A stretch of 64,000 nucleotides of DNA from Minisyncoccia bacterium (GTDB lineage Bacteria; Patescibacteriota; Minisyncoccia; Phycocordibacterales; UBA9973). The notes under the pieces were generated by a model. That model saw only the letters and a list, made by a program, of their open reading frames with translations, did no database searches and was not told where the DNA came from. The stretch lies in contig JBBRTD010000001.1 in the NCBI GenBank assembly GCA_038244685.1, positions 259,569 to 323,568 on the forward strand, in the 5' to 3' direction. The translations under genes were made by a program, and so were the position numbers. Below are positions 4,753 through 61,034 of this stretch, piece after piece (position 1 is the stretch's first letter; the number at the start of each line of letters is the position of its first letter).

Positions 4753-5250
4753 ATGAAACATTTATTTGCCATCTCTGCTATCTTTTTCAGTATAATGCTA
4801 TCATTGTTCAGTTTTAATATTGCTGATGCAAGTATTACAAACAAATTAACTAAATCATTTGGAGGAAAAATTTTGATAACACCAATTCCTGGTGTTATCT
4901 GTATTGGTGTGGGACAAGCCGTATATATGAATAGTAATATAGGCGGAGCTATTAATGCAGCCAAAAGTGCAACGTCTTCAGCTACTGGTGGAGAAAAAGC
5001 TTTATCTGTATTGGGGGGTATTTATGGAATGATACCTACATATACAACAAATCCATTAAGAAAGCCTATAATAAGTAGGTTTATTCTTGGAACAGAGAAA
5101 TTAATTCCTGACTTTAAAACATGTAAGATCGGTAATATTCCAATACCCGTACTTAGAACAACAAGCAATTACGGTATTTCATCTCCAACCCCCACCCCAA
5201 ATACGAATACAGGAATAATTAGTGGCCAATCAGTTATTAATAATGAATAA
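4753..5250 (+). CDS. Small secreted or membrane protein with a signal peptide and Gly-rich hydrophobic segments; possible pilin-like subunit.
   Basis: N-terminal signal peptide (MKHLFAISAIFFSIMLSLFSFNIADA). TGnTATAAT box at 4737..4744, 8 nt before the ATG. Confidence 0.5.
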   Translation: MKHLFAISAIFFSIMLSLFSFNIADASITNKLTKSFGGKILITPIPGVICIGVGQAVYMNSNIGGAINAAKSATSSATGGEKALSVLGGIYGMIPTYTTNPLRKPIISRFILGTEKLIPDFKTCKIGNIPIPVLRTTSNYGISSPTPTPNTNTGIISGQSVINNE

Positions 5251-30540: not shown

Positions 30541-30591
30541 AAAAAACAGATGTTGTACGTCTACGGGAGACGTTCAACATCTGTTTTTTTT
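30541..30591. terminator. Bidirectional intrinsic terminator with a 16-bp stem (T1 of a two-member family).
   Basis: cagatgttgtacgtct-acggg-agacgttcaacatctg flanked by A6 and T8. Confidence 0.75.
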
Positions 30592-32768: not shown

Positions 32769-34475
32769 TTAATCTTCGTATAAATCTACAACCGAAGCCA
32801 CTTCTTCATAAGAAGTAATACCACGTAATATCTTTAAGATTCCATCCTCTTGAATTGTAAGTGATATTTGAGTTCGAGCTACTTCTTTTATTTCTCTTTC
32901 ACTTGGATTTCTGGTTATAATCTCTTCAATTTTCGCATCATTATAAATTGCTTCAAAGATTCCTATCTGTCCATGATAACCAGTATTATTACATTCTGGA
33001 CATCCAACCGGTTCATACATTTTAAAAGGTATAGTTATATCAATACCATAATCAGCAAAACTCTTGCCGTAAGACTTTGCTTTTTCTATTGAAGAATTTA
33101 TTACCTTCAATTCGTCTTCTTTTATAATTCTTTCTTTTTTACAATGAATACAAAGTCTTCGGACTAATCGCTGAGCAATTGATAGGGCTAAAGCGGAAAC
33201 CAAAATTTTAGGATTAACATCTAAATCAATTAAACGGGGGATTACTCCTGCGGCATTGTTGGTGTGAAGAGTTGAGAAGACTAAGTGACCAGTCAAAGCA
33301 GACTCAACTGCAATTTTGGCTGTTTCGCTGTCTCTTATTTCTCCAACCATGATAACATCTGGATCTTGACGAAGGGCTGAACGTAGACCCTCTAGGAAAG
33401 TATAACCTTTTTCGCTATCTGTTTGAGTTTGAGTAATTCCAGGTAGGTGATATTCAATCGGGTCTTCAATTGTAATAATTTTAATTTCTGTTGAGTAAAT
33501 TTTTTGAAGGAAAGAATAGAGTGTTGTTGTTTTACCGGAACCAGTTGGACCAGTTAAAAGAATAAGACCATTAGGCTTTCTTATTTCTTTCATAAAAATT
33601 TCGTATAATTTTGGCTCAATACCCATATCTTCCAACTTAACTCTTATGGATTTAGGGTTGAGTATTCTCATAACAATAGATTCACCATATGCTCCTGGAA
33701 TAAGAGAGACACGAAGAGAGATTTCATCTTGATCAAGATAAATACTAAAGCGTCCGTCCTGGGCAATAGAACTAGCAGTAATTTTTAAACCAGAGATAAG
33801 TTTAATTCTAGAATTTATAAATTTGTGAGCAGCTGGAGTTATTTCCATAACTTCATGTAATATTCCATCAAGTCTGAAACGTAAACGAACTGTATTTTCT
33901 TCTGGTTCGAAGTGTATATCAGAAGCATTAATAGCGACAGCTCCAGCGATTGCAATCTCTAGTATGTGTGAGGTTGTATGGATATTATCTTTCTCAATGT
34001 CTTGGACGGCCTTTCTAATATCATCAACATTTTTTATATTAACCATTATTTTCTTAAGAGAATCTCCAGAAATGGCAATGCTTCCAGACTTTGATTCTGA
34101 AGCATAAGAAATTTCCTTATATCGATCCCAAGCTTTTTCTAGACTAGACTTAGATGCCATATAAAAATGGGGTATATACTCATGGTCTGTAAAAAACTTA
34201 CGCAAGTTTATTAATTTGTCTGGCTGAGGTGATCGGACAGCAACGTGAATATCTTTTCCAAGAAGTTTAAATGGAGCCACTTCTAATTCTCTTGCTTCTT
34301 TTTCTTGTATCGTGCGAAGAGCATCATTATCTATTGGAATAGAAGAAAGATTAATAGGGGGTACTCCATAACGAACTTGAGCCAAGGCTTCCACTAAATC
34401 TTCCTCTTCCTTCTTTCTTAAATCTAAAAAGTTTTTATTCTGCTTGTCGTCATCAAATTGAATAGTCATATGCAA
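32769..34475 (-). CDS. pilB: Type IV pilus / type II secretion assembly ATPase of the PilB/GspE family.
   Basis: Walker A GPTGSGKTT. C-terminal tetracysteine CxxC...CxxC (CIHC...CPEC). N-terminal GSPII_E_N-like region. Confidence 0.88.
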   Translation of the reverse strand: MHMTIQFDDDKQNKNFLDLRKKEEEDLVEALAQVRYGVPPINLSSIPIDNDALRTIQEKEARELEVAPFKLLGKDIHVAVRSPQPDKLINLRKFFTDHEYIPHFYMASKSSLEKAWDRYKEISYASESKSGSIAISGDSLKKIMVNIKNVDDIRKAVQDIEKDNIHTTSHILEIAIAGAVAINASDIHFEPEENTVRLRFRLDGILHEVMEITPAAHKFINSRIKLISGLKITASSIAQDGRFSIYLDQDEISLRVSLIPGAYGESIVMRILNPKSIRVKLEDMGIEPKLYEIFMKEIRKPNGLILLTGPTGSGKTTTLYSFLQKIYSTEIKIITIEDPIEYHLPGITQTQTDSEKGYTFLEGLRSALRQDPDVIMVGEIRDSETAKIAVESALTGHLVFSTLHTNNAAGVIPRLIDLDVNPKILVSALALSIAQRLVRRLCIHCKKERIIKEDELKVINSSIEKAKSYGKSFADYGIDITIPFKMYEPVGCPECNNTGYHGQIGIFEAIYNDAKIEEIITRNPSEREIKEVARTQISLTIQEDGILKILRGITSYEEVASVVDLYED

Positions 34476-34563
34476 TAATTATATATTATAAGGTTTTTAA
34501 AAGCGAATAATTTAGAAAAATATTTTAATTTTCCGAAATTTTATTATAAATTGGGTCGTATAA

Positions 34564-34681
34564 GGGGTTGACAAATCTTGTTAAATATGCTTTCATATAA
34601 GGGAATGAGTATTTGTGATTACTATATATGCCTCTCAAATCTGGGTGTTATATATAGTAATCACAAATTAAAATTAAAAAC
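34564..34681 (+). promoter_or_regulatory. Promoter (GGGGTTGACAA -35 element) plus 5'UTR hairpin. Copy A of a duplicated regulatory module.
   Basis: TTGACA at 34568..34573. Perfect 15-bp inverted repeat GTGATTACTATATAT/ATATATAGTAATCAC enclosing the loop gcctctcaaatctgggtgtt. Ends in taaaattaaaaa before the ATG. Confidence 0.55.
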
Positions 34682-35287
34682 ATGAAAAATTTAGTTATTT
34701 TAGGAATTGTCCTATTGTTAGGAGTCGTTTATGCATGTAAAACAACACAAGTGGCTCCACCCCAGCAACTTCCAGCACAGCAGTTGGAACAAAAGTTGCC
34801 TGATTTATGGCTTCAGGATACATACTCGGCAATAGACCCGAGTGATCCTGTAACATTCTACAATGAGCATGAGATAATTGTTAGGGCAGAGATCCCTAAA
34901 AAAACGATTATGTTCAAAGATGGGAATACTTATCGGATTGACAGCTCGACTGTTGTTTCGTTTGTAATTCCAGCTATGACGCCAGGAGTTCTCATTAAGG
35001 CAAACAGGACAAAAACCGGTTTAACTGAGATGATTATATCCTTTGACGAGTCTGATCCAAACTACACATGTTCGTTTGTTGTAATGCCAAGTAAGGCATT
35101 TACATTAAACTCAAACATGAAAATTTCTTTTGAAGGTAAAACTTACGCTGTCAAAGCCTCTATTAAGGGAGATGGCTCGGGATTAAACAGATTAAGGTCA
35201 AATTTTTATGATCTAAAACAGCAGAACCAAATTAATGGCTCCGCTGCCGGCAGAAATGCTAGCGGAACCAAAATCATCAGTAAATAA
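34682..35287 (+). CDS. Lipoprotein with a lipobox (VYAC), hypothetical surface protein.
   Basis: Signal peptide ending LLLGVVYAC. Confidence 0.6.
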   Translation: MKNLVILGIVLLLGVVYACKTTQVAPPQQLPAQQLEQKLPDLWLQDTYSAIDPSDPVTFYNEHEIIVRAEIPKKTIMFKDGNTYRIDSSTVVSFVIPAMTPGVLIKANRTKTGLTEMIISFDESDPNYTCSFVVMPSKAFTLNSNMKISFEGKTYAVKASIKGDGSGLNRLRSNFYDLKQQNQINGSAAGRNASGTKIISK

Positions 35288-35317
35288 AACAGAAGTTTTA
35301 TTTAAAATATAAATTAA

Positions 35318-35352
35318 TTCCCTTAACTAATTATGTTAAGGGAATTTTTTTT
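35318..35352 (+). terminator. Intrinsic terminator.
   Basis: ttcccttaac-taattat-gttaagggaa followed by T8. Confidence 0.7.
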
Positions 35353-35499
35353 ATTAAATTATTAATTATAGATTTAATAATCATTTTTATAATTCTAAAA
35401 CCAGTCTTATTTCATAATAATATATCTCAGTATTTCAAAGAAAAATTACATATTAAGCTTTTCGTTTCGTCAAATTAGCCATAAAGGGGAGTCTTTAAT

Positions 35500-35629
35500 G
35501 GGGTTGACAAGAGTGACCAAATATGCTATCATATAGACAAATGTTTTAGTTTTAAGTGTTTTATTTGTTTCTCAAATTTGGGGAGTAAATATAACGCTTA
35601 AAATTAAAAAAACAAAAAAAACGAAAGAT
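35500..35629 (+). promoter_or_regulatory. Promoter plus 5'UTR hairpin. Copy B of the duplicated module.
   Basis: GGGGTTGACAA, then a 17-nt spacer, then TATCAT. 15-nt hairpin arms ttaagtgttttattt/aaatataacgcttaa around the loop gtttctcaaatttggggagt. Ends in ttaaaattaaaaa. Confidence 0.55.
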
Positions 35630-36406
35630 ATGAGAGCATTGGTTATTATTTTTATTTTAACCCTAGGATGGTTAAAATCAAATGGGCAAACTGGACCCGT
35701 ATTCCAGTACACGAATCCTTCGAAGCAAGAGATTTATAGTCTTGCTACAGAAGAAAGCCCAAAAGGCTATGCATTTAGAACTTATCTCTTGGATGTTATT
35801 AATTCTGGTTTAAAAGATACAACATTACGTGTTTCATTAGTAAACATAAATGATGTATTTAATAATTTATACTTCGAAGAGATTTATCTCGAAGAAGGAA
35901 AATATTTAAACTCTGGATATAATCCATCCAAAAGAAAAATGGTTCCAAGTGTAGGACACCAATGGACAGGTTTCGGCTGGGTCTATAAGATTGGAACATT
36001 TTCAATTAAGACTTTAAAAGGGGATTGTGCTAATATTTTAAGCGCAATGCCAGTAAGAAGTTTTGTATTGCAAAGCTCTTTTCCTCCACTACCAAAGAAT
36101 TCGGAGGTAAAAACTGCTTCTTTCAATTTTCCAGAAGATTTAGGTGGTTCTGCTATTGTAACAAAAGAGCAACCAGTACAAAAACCTTGGTCTTATGAGC
36201 CACCAGTTAAACATAAGAAGAAATTCTTCCGTAGAACTGGAGTTGTCATTGGCGGTGTTGTTGTCGGAGTTGGTTTAGGTGGATTAGTTTATGCAATTTT
36301 GCATAAGAAAGGTTCATCTGAACATGGAACAATGTCTGGCGGTAGGCCATTCGTTGACCCGGCAAATGTCACAATCCCTGACCCAGGCGCTGGGAGAGGA
36401 GATTGA
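35630..36406 (+). CDS. Secreted protein with a C-terminal transmembrane anchor (Gly/Val-rich helix), hypothetical surface protein.
   Basis: Signal peptide. C-terminal helix VVIGGVVVGVGLGGLVYAIL followed by basic residues. Confidence 0.6.
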   Translation: MRALVIIFILTLGWLKSNGQTGPVFQYTNPSKQEIYSLATEESPKGYAFRTYLLDVINSGLKDTTLRVSLVNINDVFNNLYFEEIYLEEGKYLNSGYNPSKRKMVPSVGHQWTGFGWVYKIGTFSIKTLKGDCANILSAMPVRSFVLQSSFPPLPKNSEVKTASFNFPEDLGGSAIVTKEQPVQKPWSYEPPVKHKKKFFRRTGVVIGGVVVGVGLGGLVYAILHKKGSSEHGTMSGGRPFVDPANVTIPDPGAGRGD

Positions 36407-36547
36407 TTATCTTTTATTTTTTAAAAATTGCACATTATCTAAATTAAGTAATGGTGAAAAGTTTGCTTGCAAACTTTTCACCACCTCTTTAAGTCTCCAA
36501 CTCTTCGAAGGGTTGAAGGTTTAAAATTGTAACAATTATTAATTATT

Positions 36548-47430: not shown

Positions 47431-47483
47431 AAAAAACAGAGGTTGTACGTCTAAGGGAGACGTCCAACCTCTGTTTTTGTTTT
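47431..47483. terminator. Bidirectional intrinsic terminator with a 16-bp stem (T2, paralog of the 30541 terminator).
   Basis: cagaggttgtacgtct-aaggg-agacgtccaacctctg flanked by A7 and T5gT4. Confidence 0.75.
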
Positions 47484-48424: not shown

Positions 48425-48488
48425 AATTTCAGTACCTTAGACTCAATTTTTATAACTTATTTCATTATATCATCGCATTTTTGGAGCC

Positions 48489-48527
48489 ACAATAGAAAAA
48501 GCCAGATAAATCTGGCTTTTTCTATTG
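48489..48527 (-). terminator. Hairpin terminator downstream of the minus-strand tRNA-Arg.
   Basis: aatagaaaaagccagat-aaa-tctggctttttctatt. Confidence 0.6.
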
Positions 48528-48599
48528 TGGTCCTGGCAGGAATCGAACCTGCATCGCAACTTCCGCAAAGTTGCGTCCTATCCATTGAACGACAGGACC
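48528..48599 (-). tRNA. tRNA-Arg with apparent anticodon GCG (isotype call tentative).
   Basis: Hand-folded: acceptor GGTCCTG/CAGGACC, anticodon stem CAACT/AGTTG, loop TTGCGGA, T-arm GCAGG-TTCGATT-CCTGC. Confidence 0.65.
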
Positions 48600-50834: not shown

Positions 50835-50930
50835 CTTTTAATTATAACACGGCACTGGTTTATTTATTAAATTTTTATACAACGCACATATGAAAAAATC
50901 TCAACAATCGTTGAGATTTTTTCATATGTG

Positions 50931-51017
50931 CGGAAGGGGGGAGATTCGAACTCCCGAGGAGCTTTCACCCCTGACAGTTTTCAAGACTGTTCCTTTCAAC
51001 CACTCAGGCACCCTTCC
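50931..51017 (-). tRNA. tRNA-Ser (anticodon TGA) with a long variable arm.
   Basis: Hand-folded: GGAAGGG acceptor, anticodon stem ACAGT/ACTGT, loop CTTGAAA, long variable arm, T-arm GGGAG-TTCGAAT-CTCCC. Followed on the minus strand by a 23-bp perfect palindrome (50886..50932). Confidence 0.85.
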
Positions 51018-55472: not shown

Positions 55473-55571
55473 ATATATTATACAACATATCTAATATCCA
55501 TTATATTCGGACATTTATTGGCTAATTGAATAATAGCATATTTTTAATATATTTCAACTATATGCTAGTAT

Positions 55572-56893: not shown

Positions 56894-56977
56894 GCGCGGG
56901 TGTTGAAACTGGTAGACAAGCATCCTTGAGGTGGATGTGCCCTTACGGGTGTGGAGGTTCAAGTCCTCTCCCGCGCA
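56894..56977 (+). tRNA. tRNA-Leu (anticodon GAG) with a long variable arm.
   Basis: Hand-folded: GCGCGGG acceptor, anticodon stem CATCC/GGATG, loop TTGAGGT, variable arm, T-loop TTCAAGT. CCA not encoded. Confidence 0.85.
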
Positions 56978-57165
56978 CAATAAGAAAAACCTTTTTAAAA
57001 AGGTTTTTCTTATTGTGCGCGGAATGAAGAACCTACGTTCTTCATGTGAGAGGAATTGAAAACCTTGAGTATATTTTCTTAAATTTAATAATTTTAGAAA
57101 ATACGAAAGGTATACTGGTCATGTAATGACCAAGAAGCGTACTCGCGTTCCTCTCCCGCGCACAA
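56978..57165 (+). repeat. tRNA-linked roughly 188-nt structured element (copy 1). It ends with a direct 17-nt copy of the tRNA-Leu 3' end.
   Basis: Hairpin aagaaaaacc-ttttt-aaaaaggtttttctt. Inverted tRNA-end copy attgtgcgcgg. Hairpins at 57024..57045, 57073..57102 and 57117..57131. gtactcgcg at 57139..57147. ttcctctcccgcgcacaa at 57148..57165. Confidence 0.5.
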
Positions 57166-57193
57166 AGTTAGAGATATAAGATATAATAGGAGC

Positions 57194-60772: not shown

Positions 60773-60848
60773 GGTGCTTATAGTGTAATGGTTAGCACTA
60801 GAGTTTGTGGAACTCTCGGTCTGGGTTCAAATCCCAGTAGGCACCCCA
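60773..60848 (+). tRNA. tRNA-His (anticodon GTG) with the G-1 nucleotide and CCA encoded.
   Basis: Hand-folded: G-1, then GTGCTTA acceptor, anticodon stem AGAGT/ACTCT, loop TTGTGGA, T-arm CTGGG-TTCAAAT-CCCAG, discriminator C, then CCA. Confidence 0.88.
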
Positions 60849-61034
60849 TAACAAAAACCCCTGAAAAGGGTTGTTTTTGTTTTGGGGTGCCCAAGCAAAT
60901 GAACTGCTTCATTTGCGTCTGGGGATTTGAAGACCTTGAACTTGGATTTTGAAACTCTGTTTCAAAATCCGTGAAAGGTGTACAGATTCTGTAAGAATCA
61001 AAAAGTGTACTCGCGGTCCCAGTAGACACAACCC
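60849..61034 (+). repeat. tRNA-linked roughly 186-nt structured element (copy 2), homologous to the one after tRNA-Leu. It ends with a degenerate copy of the tRNA-His 3' end.
   Basis: Hairpin caaaaaccc-ctgaaaa-gggttgttttt. Inverted tRNA-end copy ttttggggtgcc. Hairpins at 60895..60916, 60944..60970 and about 60983..60999. gtactcgcg at 61007..61015. gtcccagtagacacaaccc at 61016..61034. Confidence 0.5.

Follow-up and report, generated by a model that had tools for sequence, protein, structure and literature searches.

Two neighboring genes for envelope proteins in an uncultivated, ultra-small Minisyncoccia bacterium are preceded by nearly the same promoter and hairpin module, which raises the question of whether this module acts as DNA or as RNA and what it does for the two genes. 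The window analyzed here is the whole 64,000-nt stretch from position 259,569 to 323,568 of contig JBBRTD010000001.1 (assembly GCA_038244685.1), which has a G+C content of 33%; coordinates refer to the window unless a related contig is named. The module was first noticed in a reading of the nucleotide sequence alone (hereafter, the original prediction), which took it for a structured regulatory element upstream of gene A (34682-35287, + strand) and gene B (35630-36406, + strand). Our analysis indicates that the element is very probably a selected RNA structure in the 5' leader of both messenger RNAs (mRNAs). As an RNA motif it has no earlier description and belongs to a familiar general kind, the 5'-leader stem-loop; as far as seen, its distribution is limited to these two neighboring genes within a Paceibacteria-like lineage.

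Structure of the leader hairpins

Leader hairpin A (34611-34668, + strand) consists of 19 perfect pairs between the arms 34611-34629 and 34650-34668, an internal soft zone, and an apical helix that begins with the C34634-G34645 pair, continues with U.G, C-G, and A-U pairs, and closes the loop AAUC. Leader hairpin B (35544-35609, + strand) has approximately 30 pairs, including several G.U pairs, and an apical helix CUCA/UGGG at 35571-35582 around the loop AAUU. The 15-nt arms described in the original prediction are present and extend into these longer stems. The 20-nt loop described there is not a loop, because its conserved motif CTCAAATYTGGG (CTCAAATCTGGG at 34634-34645 and CTCAAATTTGGG at 35571-35582) folds into the apical helix (C-G, U.G, C-G, and A-U) closing a 4-nt loop, and the true loops vary. 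The predicted folding energy of hairpin A is -27.5 kcal/mol (z-score of -6.1), with no better-folding sequence among 200 shuffles. Hairpin B folds with -26.7 kcal/mol (z-score of -5.7), a stability reached by none of 200 shuffles, and its - strand gives -12.3 kcal/mol.

Copies in relatives were collected from metagenomic contigs traced from homologs of proteins A and B, and a pattern scan of metagenome contigs added six loci. The related contigs come from humic-lake samples (Trout Bog and the Grosse Fuchskuhle type). The module occurs as 23 copies in 13 distinct contigs, all upstream of A or B orthologs, with at most two copies per related locus. A covariance model built from 15 copies scored 75.4 bits for copy A and 79.4 bits for copy B (E-values of about 1e-13). 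When the 64-kb window was searched with this model, nothing else exceeded 18 bits with the speed filters either on or off, and hence no third copy was found. No wider regulon was found in the window or at the related loci: exactly two copies are present in the window, and those in relatives precede the same two gene families.

Covariation was measured on an alignment of 22 sequences, which superseded an earlier version of 15, with a consensus hairpin of 27 pairs. The pairing rule was satisfied in 91.7% of the alignment cells, as compared with 73% in shuffles and 39-50% when the partners were slid, and compensatory changes were found in 17 of the 27 pairs. The covariation score was 0.534 against 0.20, a value reached by none of 500 shuffles. 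In the lower stem, U-A, A-U, and G-C pairs swap freely. The apical helix behaves differently: the C-G pair (C34-G67 in the alignment) is present in 22/22 sequences, the U.G in 18/22, the second C-G in 20/22, and the A-U in 21/22, and the orientation of the helix never flips. The U.G wobble is replaced by U-A in three sequences (seen directly in L021A and L023B, where the L number denotes a related contig) and by C-G in one. A second conserved G.U pair (17/22) lies below a three-pair soft zone that is rich in wobbles and mismatches, is located 4-8 bp below the loop, and is flanked by conserved pairs. The free exchange of pairs in the lower stem and the fixed orientation of the apex argue for sequence-specific recognition of the latter.

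All 23 copies have a stem of 24-36 pairs, and their loops range from 3 to approximately 30 nt without conserved sequence. The + strand folds more stably than the - strand in 22 copies, with means of -26.9 and -19.0 kcal/mol, respectively. The covariation, the conserved wobbles, and the strand preference are what an RNA transcribed with the genes would be expected to show and speak against a DNA operator, and the structured regulatory element of the original prediction is upheld in this form. The operator that it offered as an alternative is disfavored by the asymmetry of the half-sites, CUCA and UGGG, which include a conserved U.G.

At the gathering thresholds of Rfam 15, only transfer RNAs (tRNAs) were matched in the window, and a permissive local scan of 34400-35750 returned only generic microRNA-precursor models, the best with 26.8 bits against a cut-off of 95. 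A riboswitch was rejected, since the element is a single hairpin with variable loops and no alternative pairing with the start region. Mimicry of a Shine-Dalgarno (SD) sequence by the 3' arm (GGGGAG and similar) was also rejected; few copies have the GGAG core, and the segment is paired and separated from the start codon by 30-60 nt. An alternative fold in which the 3' arm pairs with the 5' AAAUGU is not conserved and is absent in copy A of the window.

Several B copies have enlarged loops, in which an extra GAGA or GAGG stands immediately after UCUCA, as in UCUCAuuuuuGAGA...GGGAAA. These copies are found at L004 3185-3283, L015 3273-3355 (- strand), L017 849-935 (- strand), L019 1724-1816, L021 2596-2679, and L025 4900-4984. 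In these copies, the 5' UCUC could possibly pair either locally or with the distal GGGA, which would give an alternative apex.

Promoters and predicted 5' ends of the transcripts

The promoter of gene A (34564-34596, + strand) comprises a GGGG run, the -35 element TTGACA (34568-34573), a 17-nt spacer with a TG dinucleotide at 34588-34589, and the -10 element TTTCAT (34591-34596). The promoter of gene B (35500-35532, + strand) has the same arrangement, with the G-run, TTGACA at 35504-35509, a 17-nt spacer with TG at 35524-35525, and TATCAT at 35527-35532. The 11-mer GGGGTTGACAA is found at 34564-34574 and 35500-35510, and both spacers end with AAATATGC. The promoter elements, spacer ends, and -10 boxes of the original prediction are therefore all in place. 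In a promoter scan of the region, copy B was the top sigma-70-like site, matching at 11 of 12 positions and carrying the TG extension. The -35 element, the spacing, and the -10 element are conserved in all related copies, and the 17-nt distance between the hexamers is invariant.

The 11-mer alone is not above chance, as it was found twice in the 64-kb window against an expectation of 0.67, and two or more occurrences were found in 14 of 100 shuffles. Window-wide searches with one or two mismatches likewise gave no excess over chance for the 11-mer or the 12-mer alone. The combined pattern TTGACA-N12-16-TGNTWTNAT occurs in the 64 kb solely at these two sites (0.13 expected; 1 of 100 shuffles). 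TG-extended -10 boxes are common elsewhere in the genome. Weaker matches to AAATATGCTWTCATATA were considered as further modules and were discarded as ordinary promoters, such as those upstream of the tRNAs at 55527-55543.

An AAUG sequence follows each promoter. In copy A (34604-34607, + strand), its ATG lies 8 nt after the -10 box and opens a mini-open reading frame (mini-ORF) of 26 codons, the stop of which overlaps the main start codon (ATGA). In copy B (35540-35543, + strand), the ATG at 35541-35543 is again 8 nt after the -10 box, and the mini-ORF is AUG UUU UAG, ending at the foot of the hairpin. The ATG is present at this distance (7 nt in one copy) in 20 of the 23 copies and is replaced by ATA in L014A and L017A and by ATTG in L025A.

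The AAUG is positioned where the leaderless-looking genes of this genome start. In the window, a -10-like box, often TGnTATAAT, lies 5-9 nt before the start codon of approximately 17 of 53 ORFs (for example, those starting at 4753, 9858, 39679, 49140 on the - strand, 50340 on the - strand, 57194, and 57848), and an SD-like tetramer is found at 9 of 53. A -10 box close to the start codon is the signature of leaderless transcription in the "group C" genomes (PMC6028130). Many first genes of this genome thus appear, from their sequences, to use leaderless mRNAs, and the leaders of genes A and B, with approximately 80-90 nt, are exceptional as the only long ones seen among the window genes. We found nothing specific on leader RNAs of the Candidate Phyla Radiation (CPR) or on leaderless translation in Patescibacteria in the literature searched. 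Transcripts of genes A and B are predicted to begin at or just before the AAUG. Because the AAUG occupies the position of a leaderless start and the stem begins 2-9 nt after it in the 23 copies, the hairpin is predicted to be 5'-terminal in both mRNAs.

The initiation regions between the hairpins and the start codons (34669-34681 for gene A and 35610-35629 for gene B, both + strand) are A-rich and lack an SD sequence. The A-rich tail counted as part of the module in the original prediction is indeed present before the ATG codons at 34682 and 35630; however, start codons in this genome generally have such a context, and the tail does not distinguish the module.

The two genes and their neighborhood

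Gene A encodes a predicted lipoprotein of 201 amino acids, in which the lipobox cysteine (Cys19) is invariant among the homologs. Gene B encodes a protein of 258 amino acids with a signal peptide, an ectodomain, a C-terminal transmembrane helix, and a Gly/Pro-rich tail. These features agree with the proposal that both products are exported. No Pfam family was found for either protein, and a scan of genome contigs with protein A gave a single weak match of no relevance. Structure prediction of protein A yielded a poor model, with a predicted local distance difference test (pLDDT) score of 42. The AlphaFold model of protein B is confident, with pLDDT values above 90 for residues 21-140 of the ectodomain, and this ectodomain model had no fold match in the PDB. 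A tandem gene duplication was rejected as the source of the module pair, as proteins A and B have no detectable similarity (E = 0.64).

The neighborhood reads RuvC, RuvB, PilB, A, B, DUF11, TsaE, and PolA, with ruvC, ruvB, and the gene of a PilB-type type IV pilus ATPase on the opposite strand upstream of gene A. Gene A is followed by an intrinsic terminator (35316-35354, + strand) consisting of a 12-bp stem (35316-35346) and a T-run, which is conserved in relatives. This canonical terminator between A and B defines two separate transcription units. Two hairpins lie 3' of gene B (36450-36525, + strand; 36450-36485 and 36488-36525) and are conserved in the related contig L014. Both lie in the spacer that separates gene B from the gene of an 875-aa DUF11 protein, and the T-run after the first is only weak. 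They are likely the end of transcription unit B but may instead be part of the DUF11 leader.

The source names on the homologs of protein B point to a probable assignment to Candidatus Paceibacterota or Nomurabacteria, within CPR. L014 is a close relative, with identities to the window proteins of 83% for A but 44% for B. In its alignment with the window, the B leader, the signal peptide, the C-terminal anchor, and gene A all align, whereas the DNA of the B ectodomain (approximately 35690-36100) is unalignable. From these sequences, the ectodomain of protein B looks like a surface domain that is hypervariable between strains.

History of the module in relatives

The gene order RuvC-RuvB-PilB, A, B, and DUF11 is conserved. 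Homologs of A share 61-85% identity and those of B share 34-59%; the identity to the window falls to 61% for hairpin-bearing orthologs of A and to 44% or less for B. Across contigs, A copies of the module group with A copies and B copies with B copies. Therefore, the duplication is old and both copies have been kept, neither recently duplicated nor homogenized by gene conversion. The original prediction held that the arms of the two copies differ completely. This is correct in the lineage of the window, where copy A has acquired an entirely different lower stem that still pairs, but does not extend to distant relatives, in which the A and B stems are alike. A mobile repeat resembling a miniature inverted-repeat transposable element (MITE) or a repetitive extragenic palindromic (REP) sequence was rejected, because there are just two copies per 64 kb and they are always syntenic.

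The hairpin has been lost in nature. In L004-L006 (L004 2336-2435), gene A retains a TTGACA-17-TATGAT promoter and a 33-nt leader from which the hairpin has disappeared, and in L023 (1941-2292) an A homolog with 36% identity has moved between ruvB and pilB and has no hairpin. Such natural loss suggests that the hairpin is modulatory and not essential.

Two further features of the related loci were observed. A MITE-like insert of approximately 120-135 nt with the terminal inverted repeats CCCGTTAGA...TCTAACGGG lies just upstream of the module promoter in two lineages, in the gap between pilB and copy A in L011 (3718-3850) and L012 and in the gap between pilB and copy B in L023 (4718-4840). In the lineage with the GTGATTA-type stem, a second small hairpin after copy A displays a strong SD sequence (AAGGAGG) before the start codon. 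It is found at approximately 1600-1628 in L014, downstream of 1332 on the - strand of L016, and at approximately 1754-1785 in L021, and the segment has been lost in copy A of the window.

Proposed role and alternative explanations

We propose that the hairpin acts in cis, as RNA, at a stage after transcription has begun, and that its most likely role would be control of mRNA lifetime, a tentative reading to which we assign a probability of about 0.45. Each gene would form its own transcription unit under a sigma-70-type promoter that is close to the consensus and has an extended -10 element. The transcript would open at or near the AAUG, fold within approximately 2-9 nt into a hairpin of 24-36 bp at its very 5' end, and continue through an unstructured A-rich stretch to the start codon. 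The 5'-terminal duplex would deny a single-stranded 5' end to RNase J, a 5'-to-3' exonuclease, and would likewise block a 5' pyrophosphohydrolase, if there is one (the enzyme is not documented in CPR). The messages of the two envelope proteins would accumulate as a result. The invariant apex, together with the second G.U pair and the soft zone, would probably be recognized by a trans-acting factor that tunes both messages together, with RNase III and an RNA-binding protein as the two candidates. We infer the stabilizing effect, as well as the existence and identity of this factor.

CPR genomes keep RNase J, RNase III, and PNPase (PMC12641178). Single-stranded 5' ends are required by RppH and RNase E, and 5'-end hairpins, ribosome-binding sites, or bound proteins stabilize the downstream mRNA against RNase J, RppH, and RNase E (PMC3997798). 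The predicted 5'-terminal position of the hairpin and the retention of RNase J in CPR favor a leader that protects the 5' end and would in this way raise and coordinate the expression of the two envelope proteins.

Several points weigh against control of mRNA lifetime. The argument leans on a predicted transcription start and a presumed stabilizing effect, and a start at the first A of the AAUG would leave 4-9 unpaired nt, on which enzymes that depend on the 5' end may still be able to load. The 5' stabilizer hairpins known so far are much shorter and require no conserved sequence, so that stability alone fails to explain the invariant apex. Long perfect terminator hairpins are common in this genome, and stem length is therefore weak evidence for any particular nuclease. 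Finally, the hairpin has been lost before gene A in L004-L006 and is absent from the A homolog of L023.

The alternative that survives best is an operator for a dedicated RNA-binding regulator, which would recognize the apical helix and switch both envelope proteins together, at the level of translation or of stability; this control may be coordinated with the neighboring gene of the type IV pilus ATPase. In its favor, the apex is invariant and never flips, while the lower stem covaries freely; the same apex has been present in both paralogous copies since before these lineages split, and the element always lies beside the divergent pilB gene or one gene away. We nevertheless consider this explanation rather unlikely. 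No candidate regulator gene is conserved in the neighborhood from RuvC to PolA, and the change of U.G to U-A in three of the 22 aligned copies means that the wobble is not strictly required. It is also compatible with a role in mRNA lifetime rather than exclusive of it.

The next candidate is a processing site for RNase III, at which the duplex would be cut and the 5' triphosphate end removed, with decay of both messages either triggered or delayed; wobble pairs and the soft zone would direct the enzyme to its cleavage position. All 23 copies have kept at least 24 bp, which is more than two helical turns and exceeds the duplex of about 20 bp or more expected of such a site, despite the turnover of their sequences. 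The cluster of wobbles and mismatches 4-8 bp below the loop is flanked by conserved pairs, and the enzyme is retained in at least 90% of CPR genomes (PMC12641178). However, many other perfect terminator hairpins of 18-27 bp are tolerated in this organism, so that long duplexes are not special here, and we regard processing by RNase III as unlikely. Both this explanation and the RNA-binding regulator are refinements rather than opposites of the control of mRNA lifetime.

In a third explanation, the conserved 5' AUG is a leaderless start at which the 70S ribosome loads and translates the mini-ORF of 2-26 codons, either shielding the 5' end or being passed over or through the hairpin and re-initiating at the SD-less main start. 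The fixed distance of this AUG from the -10 box in 20/23 copies reproduces the geometry of the leaderless-looking genes in the window, and the mini-ORF has 2-5 codons in 8 of 12 B copies. Its stop lies at the foot of the stem in the five B copies with 2 codons and also in L014B and L021B (4 codons), and in copy A of the window the ATGA overlap joins it to the main start, which like that of gene B lacks an SD sequence. These observations are offset by the three copies without an ATG (L014A, L017A, and L025A) and by the mini-ORFs themselves, which vary in length, frame, and end point and encode peptides under no visible selection. In addition, A-rich SD-less starts are normal for internal genes and need no special loading route. 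This explanation is improbable. A more elaborate form, in which the 5' AUG, mini-ORF, and hairpin constitute a hand-over device that takes the 70S ribosome ending at the hairpin foot and passes it across to the main start, ranks just below it and is also improbable. If true, it would be a bacterial analog of ribosome shunting that couples 5'-end protection to translation.

At the DNA level, a dimeric repressor might bind the element as an inverted-repeat operator or cruciform that lies downstream of the promoter, and an inverted repeat is indeed present, at about +10 to +75 with respect to a strong promoter. We judge this explanation very improbable, because the G.U pairs make the palindrome imperfect, the half-sites CTCA/TGGG are not complementary in 19 of the 22 aligned copies (18 with U.G and 1 with C-G), and 22 of the 23 copies fold better on one strand. 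The replacement of the stem sequence with its pairing kept, and an arm spacing that varies by up to approximately 25 nt, speak against it as well. A transcription attenuator or terminator in the leader has the same slim chance: a stable hairpin does stand between promoter and gene, but there is no U-run after it on either strand, the leader hairpins are not reported as terminator-like, the + strand continues A-rich whereas the real terminators of this organism carry T-runs, and the copies share no alternative pairing that could serve as an antiterminator. A recent local duplication or chance similarity without function, to which the presence of only two copies 936 bp apart might point, is almost certainly wrong, given that the copies are conserved in place in 13 contigs despite the diverged proteins (A to 61% and B to 44% or less), contain compensatory changes, and show a B leader better conserved than the B coding sequence.

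Comparison with known systems

The ompA and papA leaders of Escherichia coli and the aprE leader of Bacillus subtilis (references in PMC3997798) place a hairpin at the extreme 5' end of the single-gene mRNA of a surface or secreted protein, which is also the position predicted for the present hairpins. They also resemble the leaders described here in the strong promoter, the single-stranded ribosome-loading region, and the expected protection from 5'-end-dependent decay. Their hairpins span about 5-12 bp and function without a specific sequence, whereas the present element has 24-36 bp. Unlike them, it has an invariant apical helix with wobbles, forms a conserved pair on two adjacent genes, and belongs to a CPR lineage, and its role is predicted.

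Leaders processed by RNase III include those of rnc, pnp, phage T7 R1.1, and lambda N. The common feature is a long, near-perfect duplex with a local imperfect zone in the 5' leader. Genes A and B are not genes of RNA metabolism, and an autoregulatory logic is therefore missing. Factor-recruiting leader RNAs of surface-structure operons, namely HK022 put, the EAR element, and the leader hairpins bound by LoaP, share a promoter-proximal structured RNA with sequence-specific features, here in duplicate before envelope-related genes. These RNAs act on long operons with internal terminators, whereas each unit here contains one short gene, and no NusG paralog or other partner gene was seen near the module loci.

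In plant pararetroviruses, an upstream ORF followed by a hairpin directs ribosome shunting, and we know of no description of ribosome shunting in bacteria. A study on mycobacteria (PMC4633059) reports leaderless short ORFs before leadered genes. The module recalls both systems in the AUG at the predicted 5' end, the very short ORF reaching the stem base in most B copies, the landing region, and the SD-less start. The mini-ORF is absent in 3 of the 23 copies and variable in the rest, and the likeness is a resemblance only.

Other hairpins and tRNA loci in the window

Many other intergenic hairpins of 18-27 bp end in A-runs and T-runs and look, from sequence, like bidirectional terminators. Two near-identical terminator-like hairpins with palindromes of 21-22 bp (AAAAACAGAKGTTGTACGTCT and AGACGTYCAACMTCTGTTTTT) are located at the unrelated sites 30541-30589 and 47432-47478 and form a small repeat family. 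Long perfect hairpins with arms of 19-26 bp and loops of 0-14 nt are found at tRNA genes (48487-48530, 50883-50932, 56971-57022, and 60840-60891). They start inside or at the 3' end of the tRNA, so that the 3' end of the acceptor is part of the stem. ARAGORN identified a tRNA-Leu(GAG) at 56894-56978 that is missing from the list at the Rfam gathering thresholds. Its last approximately 17 nt (TCCTCTCCCGCGCACAA) are repeated approximately 185 nt downstream at 57150-57166, and this repeat may be the remnant of an integration site.

Significance

To our knowledge, almost nothing is known about gene regulation in CPR bacteria, which have not yet been grown alone. At the locus described here, an RNA element with strong covariation is linked to two envelope proteins whose genes adjoin that of a type IV pilus ATPase. 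One of these proteins, protein B, has a putatively hypervariable ectodomain, the kind of molecule expected at the interface with a host or a phage. The element offers a concrete handle on how a mostly leaderless genome treats its rare leadered, highly expressed genes. Should the apex bind a factor, CPR would gain one of its first defined post-transcriptional regulators.

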